This document shows, in pieces, positions 61,109 through 64,000 of a DNA stretch of 64,000 bases. Numbering within the stretch: position 1 is the first letter of the stretch; each line of letters starts with the position of its first letter. This DNA comes from Escherichia coli. Lineage in GTDB: Bacteria > Pseudomonadota > Gammaproteobacteria > Enterobacterales > Enterobacteriaceae. Made by a program: the position numbers. The stretch lies in the NCBI RefSeq assembly GCF_002854065.1, contig NZ_CP024147.1. One strand, given 5' to 3'.

Positions 61109-64000
61109 TGTTAATGCAAAACTGGAATGAAGATTTGCATACCGCTGGATTTATCATCGACGCCAACCCGCAGTCAGCGAAAATTGCGACATTATCTGCC
61201 AGCAATAATGGTGTGCTCGCCAATGAGAATGCAGCAAACACCGTCTCGGTCAATGTCGCTGATGAAGGAAGCAACCCAATCAATGATCATACCGTCACGT
61301 TTGCGGTATTAAGCGGATCGGAAACTTCCTTTAACAATCAAAACACCGCAAAAACGGATGTTAATGGTCTGGCGACTTTTGATCTGAAAAGTAGTAAGCA
61401 GGAAGACAACACGGTTGAAGTCACCCTTGAAAATGGCGTGAAACAAACGTTAATCGTCAGTTTTGTCGGCGACTCGAGTACCGCGCAGGTTGATCTGCAG
61501 AAGTCGAAAAATGAAGTGGTCGCTGACGGCAATGACAGTGCCACAATGACCGCGACAGTTCGGGATGCAAAAGGCAACCTGCTCAATGACGTCAAGGTCA
61601 CCTTCAATGTCAATTCAGCAGCAGCGAAACTGAGCCAAACCGAAGTGAATAGCCACGACGGGATCGCCACAGCTACGCTGACCAGTTTGAAAAATGGTGA
61701 TTATACGGTTACGGCCTCTGTGAGCTCTGGTTCTCAGGCTAATCAACAGGTGAATTTTATCGGTGATCAAAGTACTGCTGCCCTGACCCTCAGTGTGCCT
61801 TCAGGTGATATCACCGTCACCAACACAGCTCCGCAACATATGACTGCAACCTTGCAGGATAAAAATGGCAACCCACTAAAAGATAAAGAAATCACCTTCT
61901 CTGTGCCAAACGACGTCGCAAGTCGGTTCTCGATTAGCAACGGCGGAAAAGGCATGACGGATAGTAACGGGGTTGCAATCGCCTCCCTGACCGGCACGTT
62001 AGCGGGCACGCATATGATCACGGCTCGTCTGGCTAACAGCAATGTCAGCGATGCACAGCCAATGACGTTTGTGGCGGATAAAGACAGAGCGGTTGTCGTT
62101 CTACAAACATCGAAAGCGGAAATCATTGGGAATGGCGTGGATGAGACGACTCTGACAGCAACAGTGAAAGATCCTTTTGATAACGTGGTTAAAAATCTGT
62201 CAGTAGTCTTCCGCACCTCCCCTGCAGACACGCAACTGAGTCTGAACGCGCGTAATACTAATGAGAACGGTATTGCTGAAGTTACCCTTAAGGGCACGGT
62301 TTTGGGTGTTCATACAGCCGAAGCCATACTGCTTAACGGCAACAGAGATACGAAGATAGTCAATATTGCGCCCGATGCCAGCAACGCGCAGGTCACCCTG
62401 AACATCCCTGCACAACAGGTGGTGACGAATAACAGCGACAGCGTGCAGCTGACGGCGACGGTGAAAGATCCGTCGAATCATCCGGTGGCGGGAATAACGG
62501 TGAACTTCACCATGCCACAGGACGTGGCGGCAAACTTTACCCTTGAAAATAACGGTATTGCCATCACTCAGGCCAATGGCGAAGCGCATGTCACGCTCAA
62601 AGGTAAAAAAGCGGGCACACATACGGTAACCGCAACGCTGGGTAACAATAATGCCAGCGATGCGCAACCAGTCACCTTCGTGGCGGATAAGGACAGCGCA
62701 GTTGTCGTTTTGCAAACATCGAAAGCGGAAATCATTGGGAATGGCGTGGATGAGACGACTCTGACGGCAACAGTGAAAGATCCTTTTGATAACGCAGTAA
62801 AAGATCTACAGGTCACCTTCAGTACCAACCCGGCAGATACTCAACTTAGTCAGAGCAAAAGCAATACTAACGACAGTGGTGTGGCTGAAGTTACTCTTAA
62901 GGGCACGGTTTTGGGTGTTCATACAGTCGAAGCCACACTGCTTAACGGCAATGGCTATACGACGACAGTCAATATTGCGCCCGATGCCAGCAACGCGCAG
63001 GTCACCCTGAACATCCCTGCTCAACAGGTGGTGACGAATAACAGTGACAGCGTGCAGCTTACGGCGATGGTGAAAGATCCGTCGAATCATCCGGTGGCGG
63101 GGATAACGGTAAACTTCACCATGCCACAGGACGTTGCGGCAAACTTTACCCTTGAAAATAACGGTATTGCCATCACTCAGGCCAATGGGGAAGCGCATGT
63201 CACGCTGAAAGGTAAAAAAGCGGGCACGCATACGGTTACCGCAACGCTGGGTAATAACAATACCAGTGATTCGCAGCCGGTAACATTTGTGGCGGACAAA
63301 ACCTCGGCTCAGGTTGTCCTGCAGATGTCAAAAGATGAGATCACAGGTAATGGCGTCGATAACGCAACGCTAACTGCAACGGTTAAAGATCAGTTCGACA
63401 ATGAGGTGAATAATCTTCCGGTAACATTCAGCTCAGCCTCTTCAGGACTCACCCTGACCCCGGGAGTAAGTAATACCAATGAGTCTGGCATCGCGCAGGC
63501 CACTCTCGCAGGCGTTGCCTTTGGTGAGCAGACGGTCACTGCATCACTGGCTAATAATGGTGCCAGCGACAACAAAACTGTGCATTTTATTGGCGACACA
63601 GCGGCGGCAAAAATTATCGAGTTGACGCCTGTCCCAGACAGCATAATCGCCGGTACCCCGCAGAACAGCTCCGGCAGCGTCATCACCGCCACAGTCGTTG
63701 ATAATAATGGCTTTCCGGTGAAAGGTGTGACTGTGAACTTCACCAGCAACGCAGCGACAGCCGAAATGACGAACGGCGGTCAAGCCGTGACGAACGAACA
63801 GGGTAAGGCTACCGTCACTTATACCAATACCCGCTCCTCGATAGAATCAGGAGCGAGACCGGATACCGTTGAGGCCAGTCTGGAAAATGGTAGCTCCACG
63901 CTTAGCACATCAATTAATGTCAACGCTGATGCGTCTACGGCACATCTCACCTTGCTACAGGCACTCTTTGATACAGTCTCCGCAGGCGACACTACCAATC

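Follow-up and report, generated by a model that had tools for sequence, protein, structure and literature searches.

What is the repetition inside the adhesin gene yeeJ, and can it change the length of the protein that the gene encodes? The question is raised by a stretch of 64,000 nucleotides (nt) of Escherichia coli DNA (RefSeq assembly GCF_002854065.1, contig NZ_CP024147.1; hereafter the window), which ends within yeeJ, a gene for an inverse autotransporter with a stalk of immunoglobulin (Ig)-like domains. A first reading of the sequence (the original prediction) had proposed that part of this domain array consists of almost identical tandem DNA segments of roughly 600 base pairs (bp), open to recombinational expansion and contraction. 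An earlier study had described two yeeJ variants, the MG1655-type and the UMN026-type, set apart by a fragment of 906 bp that encodes three extra Big domains "made up of a repeated section" (Martinez-Gil et al. 2017, Sci Rep 7:11326, PMC5595812). The allele of the window is the long (UMN026-type) variant, with the 906-nt fragment present. Our analysis shows that a 609-nt module of the stalk is duplicated in tandem and in frame, and makes it highly probable that whole units are gained and lost by misaligned recombination and that a separate 906-nt deletion accounts for the short variant.

A 609-nt repeat in the yeeJ stalk

A repeat search of the region 58000-64000 of the window detected a direct tandem family with three copies, beginning at 62001, 62610 and 63219 (start-to-start spacing of 609 and 609 nt). 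When the sequence was scanned against itself, identity was raised at shift 609 only, with nothing at the other shifts of 600-615 or at about 300. At a resolution of 30 nt the identity at this shift climbs at ~62000 and drops after ~62690 (partner ~63300), and the best ungapped segment aligns 62001-62687 with 62610-63296 at 87.3% identity. In none of the alleles did shifts of 297-312, 600-615 (609 excepted), 906 or 1218 give a segment of at least 80% identity. The sole period is 609 nt, and the 610-nt offset between the originally proposed segments needs to be corrected accordingly. The array escaped Tandem Repeats Finder, as the longest period that this program handles is 500.

The first two copies, unit A (62001..62609, plus strand) and unit B (62610..63218, plus strand), match at 534 of 609 nt (87.7%) with no insertions or deletions. 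The repeat lies in frame and head to tail, 609 nt being 203 codons, and the two units are 86% identical at the amino-acid level. When unit A was compared with 1,963 other codon-phase-matched offsets in yeeJ, the mean identity was 0.281 (standard deviation 0.021), which places the A-B match at z ~28; the next best offset (0.47) was the third copy, unit C (63219..63827, plus strand). Absent from the original prediction, this copy is a degraded one, with an identity of 63% over its first 300 nt and of 47-48% over the full 609 nt, so that only the first ~300 nt are still recognisable in DNA. The proposed likeness in DNA is therefore borne out, since identity is as high in nucleotides (87.7%) as in amino acids (86%) rather than being confined to the protein. 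The wording "almost identical" fits two blocks of the unit, positions 67-183 (94.0%) and 367-609 (96.3%), and overstates the case for the unit as a whole (87.7%), with positions 1-66 and 184-366 matching at 72.7% and 77.6%, respectively. Exact runs shared by A and B measure 53, 28, 31, 54, 33 and 53 nt. RecA-type recombination needs exact identity over ~25-30 bp, and judged by length these blocks would suffice for it.

In terms of protein domains, the stalk in register is a regular alternation of two types, b0 a1 b1 a2 b2 a3, all on the plus strand. Domains a1 (62068..62367) and b1 (62368..62676) were delimited by Big_1 stretches and translation, and a2 (62677..62976), b2 (62977..63285) and a3 (63286..63585; present also in the K-12 allele) by translation. 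The preceding domain b0 (61759..62067) is of the b type according to its translation and its register with b1 and b2; it lies mostly outside the DNA repeat, because the identity at shift 609 rises only from ~62001, and contributes only its last ~66 nt to it. Unit A thus comprises the tail of b0, the whole of a1 and most of b1, and the recognisable part of unit C comprises the tail of b2 and a3. One 203-residue period (62068-62676, i.e. a1 plus b1) corresponds to two Big_1 stretches in Pfam, in agreement with the two Ig-like domains per unit that had been predicted. A search of solved structures with the sequence of one repeat unit gave only weak and uninformative matches, to phage tail-tube Ig-like domains (E ~2e-4). 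Weaker echoes, in DNA, of the junction between a b-type tail and an a-type start occur in the distal part of the gene, past the window end, at positions equivalent to 64353-64491 (71%) and 64662-64800 (60%) as projected from the genome of E. coli CUWW06; the distal stalk therefore contains remoter relatives of the a/b domain pair.

Unit number among E. coli strains

The repeat number of yeeJ was compared across complete E. coli genomes, ~2,900 of which have the yeeJ region. The short allele is found in ~1,700 of these and non-short alleles in ~1,200. Two units are the majority state of the non-short alleles, and in a sample spread over the collection all of the uninterrupted, fully covered alleles (14 out of 14) were of this kind. 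The short class is represented by K-12 (7077 nt). Alleles with one unit measure 7374 nt (O157:H7 TR01), 7395 nt (E700025) and 7398 nt (Santai), those with two units 7983 nt (O157:H7 7636 and CB6886), 8004 nt (CUWW06, which matches the window) and 8007 nt (2021CK-01784), and the allele of strain 1190, with three units, 8613 nt. The coding sequences of these one-, two- and three-unit alleles are intact, and the step from class to class is 609 nt. The strain comparison suggested along with the original prediction therefore yields intact alleles with one, two and three units that differ by whole repeats.

A one-unit query was matched end to end in a single piece in 48 complete genomes. A three-unit query was matched in the same way in at least 29 genomes (95-100% identity, several backgrounds), a number that is a lower bound since BLAST joins pieces that reuse one segment of a record. 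The largest number of matched places per genome was four, the value seen with three-unit alleles, which hints weakly that alleles with more than three units do not occur.

Inactivation of yeeJ is frequent. In IAI1 the gene carries an IS3 insertion together with a frameshift, some O157:H7 and other strains have insertions of IS1203 or of the IS3 family, and the alleles of ACN002, MEI1O2-23 and NCTC9038 are annotated as frameshifted. A large class of genomes (e.g. APEC O1 and NC101) retains only ~31% of yeeJ, query positions 276-7664 being reduced to ~2.46 kb. In this class, which makes up 23 of 60 evenly spaced rows of the spread sample, the annotation splits the gene into "beta domain" and "Ig-like" proteins, and what is left looks like the remnant of a big internal deletion.

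Probable recombination between units

The sequences of the units themselves suggest how their number changes. With both units of O157:H7 7636 as the reference, every one of the 23 informative sites up to position 156 in the single unit of TR01 is of the A type, and every one of the 49 from position 165 onwards is of the B type. The opposite arrangement is found in the middle one of the three units of NCTC9038, which is B-like to position 271 and A-like from 306, with zero private differences, and in the middle unit of N3, where the switch from a B-type 5' part to an A-type 3' part falls at positions 90-108. A single unit of the A5'/B3' type and middle units of the B5'/A3' type are the reciprocal products to be expected when A and B undergo unequal crossing-over in register, and as their breakpoints differ, the hybrids would have arisen in separate events. 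In addition, E700025 (one unit) and strain 1190 (three units) show 0 mismatches over 3036 nt upstream and 4 over 3750 nt downstream, and the copy-number class is incongruent with trees of the flanking sequences. The predicted expansion and contraction of the stalk is thus supported by the 609-nt multiples, by the single-crossover hybrids and by the flanks shared between one- and three-unit alleles, all of which point to homologous recombination between units that would be recurrent though rare.

The divergence between A and B is uneven. In the b block, A and B of the same strain are 96-99% identical, which is comparable to the identity of orthologues between strains (97% for A and 96% for B). 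On the other hand, in the middle of domain a the paralogues are 78-81% and the orthologues 93-98% identical. At synonymous sites A and B diverge by 0.16 to 1.1, depending on the block; such heterogeneity indicates that part of the unit has undergone gene conversion and speaks against a single date of duplication.

Recombination between alleles also appears to have shaped the gene. The 5' 3 kb of yeeJ (58966-62000 of the window) is 97-100% identical among all alleles compared, and the 3' part (from 63800 on; gene nt ~4560-6460) falls into two deep groups with a mutual identity of ~88-90%. Length class and flank group are shuffled, a sign that alleles have recombined within the gene, and the repeat region lies near the boundary. 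The yeeJ genes of TR01 and 7636 differ at 56 sites over the 3036 nt that precede the A/B crossover and at 0 over the 3729 nt that follow it, i.e. in TR01 the loss of 609 nt coincides with a switch of allele ancestry.

Origin of the short (K-12) allele

The segment absent from the short allele of K-12 (MG1655-type) corresponds to 62175..63080 of the window (plus strand), 906 nt or three Ig domains' worth, as established by blastn, by alignment of the junction and by the published description (PMC5595812). In the coordinates of the gene, K-12 lacks nt ~3210-4115, the endpoint being ambiguous within an 11-nt microhomology, GTGAAAGATCC (encoding VKDP). One copy of it, the longest exact run at shift 906, lies in a1 at the left junction (62164..62174, plus strand), and the other, located by junction alignment and translation, in b2 at the right junction (63070..63080, plus strand). 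In K-12, IAI1 and MEI1O2 alike, a1 sequence gives way to b2 sequence inside GTGAAAGATCC. The chimeric unit of K-12 is, in its 3' part, 100% identical to b2 and 96.4% identical to b1, and the chimeric Ig domain (a1N::b2C) scores as one Big_1 domain, with 57 bits against a cut-off of 34.9. A change by whole units was ruled out as the source of the 906-nt difference, which equals 609 + 297 nt and has a junction out of register with the 609-nt period. As the long allele consists of complete alternating domains and the short one contains a chimera, the short allele would be a deletion derivative of the long one.

A model of unit gain and loss

What has been observed, namely the repeat and the domains it encodes, the series of alleles, the hybrids between units and the junction of the deletion, can be brought together as follows. 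The module encodes a pair of Big_1 Ig-like domains, one of the a type and one of the b type, and the window presents a two-unit long allele followed by a degraded third unit. Misaligned homologous recombination at the shared exact runs (up to 54 nt), by unequal crossing-over between sister chromosomes or by exchange with imported alleles, would occasionally remove or add exactly one 609-nt unit, giving rise to in-frame alleles with one, two or three units, and gene conversion would homogenise part of the unit. In a separate and rarer event, a 906-nt deletion between the 11-nt microhomologies of a1 and b2 would have produced the K-12-type short allele with its a1N::b2C chimera. The gain or loss of a unit would alter the length of the rigid Ig stalk that presumably holds the distal part of the adhesin off the outer membrane. 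Our inferences concern the enzymology of this process (replication slippage or RecA-dependent recombination), how often the unit number changes and whether the phenotype is affected.

Alternative explanations

Could the duplication be ancient and static, with A and B representing old paralogous pairs and the length differences going back to one or two ancient events transmitted by descent? The A units of different strains do cluster together, and so do the B units, which means that the duplication predates the divergence of alleles; synonymous divergence between A and B amounts to 0.5-1.1 in parts of the unit, and two units dominate among the non-short alleles. A static history, however, is hard to reconcile with at least three crossover positions in the hybrid units, with one- and three-unit alleles on an identical flank background, with the incongruence between length class and flank trees, or with paralogous b blocks that resemble each other within a strain as much as orthologues do between strains. 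It is largely refuted already and in our judgement highly improbable, and could be rescued only if the hybrids or the one- and three-unit alleles were assembly errors. Such errors, occurring at the shared blocks of 53-54 nt in genomes that truly have two units or the short allele, would form an explanation of their own, as a mis-join by an assembler would likewise leave clean switches inside exact blocks, and some of the records are chromosome-level whole-genome shotgun assemblies or frameshifted (e.g. ACN002 and NCTC9038). The chance of this is very slim, given 48 one-unit and at least 29 three-unit genomes from many laboratories, hosts and backgrounds, among them groups of independent isolates with identical sequences. 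Moreover, the units differ at ~12% of sites, so that long reads resolve them easily, and the reading frame is intact in most one- and three-unit alleles.

The direction of the 906-nt change could also be the reverse of the one proposed here, a short ancestral form of the K-12 type having gained 906 bp. The short allele is indeed the commoner one (~1,700 of ~2,900 genomes), and the 2017 paper speaks of an "additional 906 bp" (PMC5595812). Nevertheless, it is the long allele that has the complete b-a-b-a-b-a alternation, and in the short allele the N-terminal half of an a-type domain is joined to the C-terminal half of a b-type domain exactly at the 11-nt microhomology. A step from short to long would have to supply the C-half of an a domain and the N-half of a b domain from nothing. 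Both have intact homologues in a3 and b0, and we consider this direction improbable. A different kind of alternative concerns the opposite strand, where the region 61767-63749 contains four open reading frames (ORFs), at 61767..62297 (176 amino acids), 62200..62715 (171), 62806..63231 (141) and 63390..63749 (119). Their lengths (119-176 amino acids) are what would favor real overlapping genes. All four were judged spurious from Pfam, RefSeq and the analysis of frames, in agreement with the original prediction: a Pfam search of the minus-strand ORFs found no family at E ≤ 0.01, the RefSeq annotation leaves the minus strand empty in this region, and the ORFs are interrupted at differing places in units A and B. 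On the other hand, the further claim that the repeat produces them did not hold. Minus-strand ORFs of 100-176 amino acids are also present upstream of it (60030-60332 and 61338-61670), and over the whole gene the two antisense frames that the ORFs occupy have 2.5-2.7 stops per 100 codons compared with 6.4 in the third frame, which rules out the repeat as their cause. The codons TTA, CTA and TCA account for 42 of 1,678 sense codons. Codon and amino-acid composition, rather than the repeat, is the best explanation for the ORFs; with the like of them outside the repeat and two frames low in stops, overlapping genes deserve next to no credence, and the ORFs of 61767-63749 should stay unannotated.

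Several points weigh against gain and loss of units by misaligned recombination, which we nevertheless prefer. The case for recombination comes from the comparison of sequences, and an assembler joining the wrong copies at shared exact blocks could, in principle, have created the singleton hybrids of TR01, NCTC9038 and N3. The event in TR01 may have been a recombination with an imported allele, out of register, rather than an intrachromosomal exchange. Mismatch repair should suppress recombination between A and B at a divergence of 12%, and only the short exact blocks offer perfect pairing. Since the great majority of non-short alleles have two units, the change must be rare, not of the phase-variation kind. 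Finally, biofilm assays detected no functional difference between long and short YeeJ (PMC5595812), which leaves the consequence of stalk length unproven. A broader proposal, that stalk length is recurrently adjusted in natural E. coli, the lengths perhaps being selected to match the thickness of other surface layers such as O-antigen or capsule, appears to us rather unlikely as a whole. Its components differ in strength, as the recurrence of module gain and loss, with both reciprocal crossover products present among isolates, is well supported and selection on stalk length is pure conjecture. If the proposal were true, the picture of two variants would be an incomplete description of a polymorphism with four classes.

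The yeeJ gene, its product and its locus

The assignment of the gene is based on its domains, its locus and its similarity to K-12. The plus-strand frame is open from 58879 (preceding stop at 58876) to the window end, and with the start at 58966, as RefSeq annotates it for E. coli CUWW06, the coding sequence occupies 58966..64000. These are the first 5035 nt of a gene that measures 8004 nt in all and continues past the window end. The region 55500-64000 is 99.92% identical to CUWW06, where yeeJ is an intact 8004-nt coding sequence located between mtfA/tRNA-Asn and a GT9 glycosyltransferase gene/shiA. The order mtfA, tRNA-Asn, yeeJ, GT9 glycosyltransferase gene, shiA is common to CUWW06 and K-12, the 7077-nt yeeJ of the latter being at the equivalent position. 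In a blastn comparison, K-12 yeeJ matched the long allele with a nucleotide identity of 97.8% for gene nt 1-3209 and of 88% beyond that point. The N-terminal part of the product contains the inverse-autotransporter beta-barrel IAT_beta (Pfam PF11924) at residues 144-419 (59395..60222, plus strand; E = 4e-112, profile positions 2-279 of 279). It is followed by Big_1 and Invasin_D3 stretches, nine of which were counted in the window part, with 16 Big_1 stretches in the full protein of 2667 amino acids. Domain content, locus and identity to K-12 therefore define the gene as yeeJ, as originally proposed, in its long form; its product is a YeeJ orthologue, an inverse autotransporter (type Ve).

A Pfam profile search of YeeJ listed no LysM family at E ≤ 0.001, and RefSeq calls some fragments of the gene "LysM domain-containing protein"; the periplasmic LysM of YeeJ, upstream of the barrel, was assigned via Prosite PS51782 (PMC5595812). 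In the C-terminal region, outside the window, where a C-type-lectin-like cap would be expected, residues 2474-2538 of the full-length CUWW06 protein show only a sub-threshold match to Invasin_D4 (22.1 bits, cut-off 27). The start annotated in RefSeq gives 2667 amino acids for the allele of the window and 2358 for K-12, for which Martinez-Gil et al. placed the start 18 codons further downstream (2340 amino acids; PMC5595812).

Upstream of yeeJ, mtfA is flanked by tRNA-Ser(CGA) (57497-57586, minus strand) on one side and by tRNA-Asn(GTT) (58578-58653, plus strand) on the other. In Santai and TR01 a tyrosine recombinase/DUF4224 pair adjoins tRNA-Ser, indicating an integrated element that is absent in the strain of the window. 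In strain RM9088 the HPI island is edged by yeeJ-homologous pseudogenes (PMC10562709). Downstream of yeeJ and outside the window, CUWW06 has an IS5 between the GT9 glycosyltransferase gene and shiA.

Other features of the window

The remainder of the window has ordinary E. coli features that score above the Rfam gathering threshold, namely the small RNAs DsrA (39373-39459, minus strand) and RseX (47797-47886, plus strand) and a tRNA-Leu/Cys/Gly cluster (3688-3989, minus strand). No complete E. coli genome fully matches the region 1-25000, with uvrC, fliC and fliD (best coverage 96%, at 98.3% identity). As CUWW06 is outside the top five matches for this region, the strain of the window differs from it there, perhaps at the flagellin region or by an insertion sequence (IS) element.

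Relation to known systems

Overall, the repeat is confirmed as a DNA-level feature of a characterised adhesin gene, not as a new kind of system, and the published long and short variants would find a molecular explanation in a deletion at an 11-nt microhomology that left a chimeric Ig domain. In practical terms, PCR for the presence or absence of the 906-bp fragment is by itself insufficient to infer the length of yeeJ, and care is advised with short-read assemblies and variant calls across the 1.2-1.8 kb repeat region.

The closest known counterpart is the UMN026-type long variant, which shares with the allele of the window the gene, the locus, the 906-bp segment and the architecture of beta-barrel and Big_1 array, preceded by a putative LysM. 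The allele of the window has 8004 rather than 7983 nt and is ~93.5% identical over the whole gene to the 7983-nt long allele of O157:H7. Beyond the two variants of the earlier study (PMC5595812), four length classes (short, one-, two- and three-unit) can now be distinguished, the repeat has been resolved to a period of 609 nt, and the 906-bp difference has been traced to an 11-nt junction. In the literature searched, which covers few subscription journals, we found neither the one-, two- and three-copy series of the 609-nt unit, nor the reciprocal hybrid units, nor the 11-nt microhomology at which the 906-bp deletion has its junction. As refinements they are modest, as the gene, its architecture and a strain-variable repeated segment are already published and the in-frame gain and loss of adhesin repeats is a textbook mechanism; the feature is real but ordinary.

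Variation of UpaH and Ag43 is mentioned in the same study (PMC5595812). In comparison with YrIlm of Yersinia ruckeri, as far as its description goes (Wrobel et al. 2018, cited in PMC6714894), yeeJ has just two similar units (88%) and a copy number of one to three. Intimin and invasin, which are also of type Ve, have the same plan as YeeJ, an N-terminal beta-barrel followed by a C-terminal rod of Big_1 and Invasin_D3 domains. To our knowledge, they have far fewer Ig domains and no comparable tandem repeat at the DNA level. The alpha C protein of group B Streptococcus, Bap/Esp and UpaH are surface proteins with a variable number of repeats, and as in yeeJ, structural domains are encoded by in-frame tandem DNA repeats, whole copies of which are gained or lost by recombination or slippage. 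Arrays of this type usually consist of many near-identical repeats and change frequently. In yeeJ, by contrast, the units are diverged and few, and their number apparently changes rarely.

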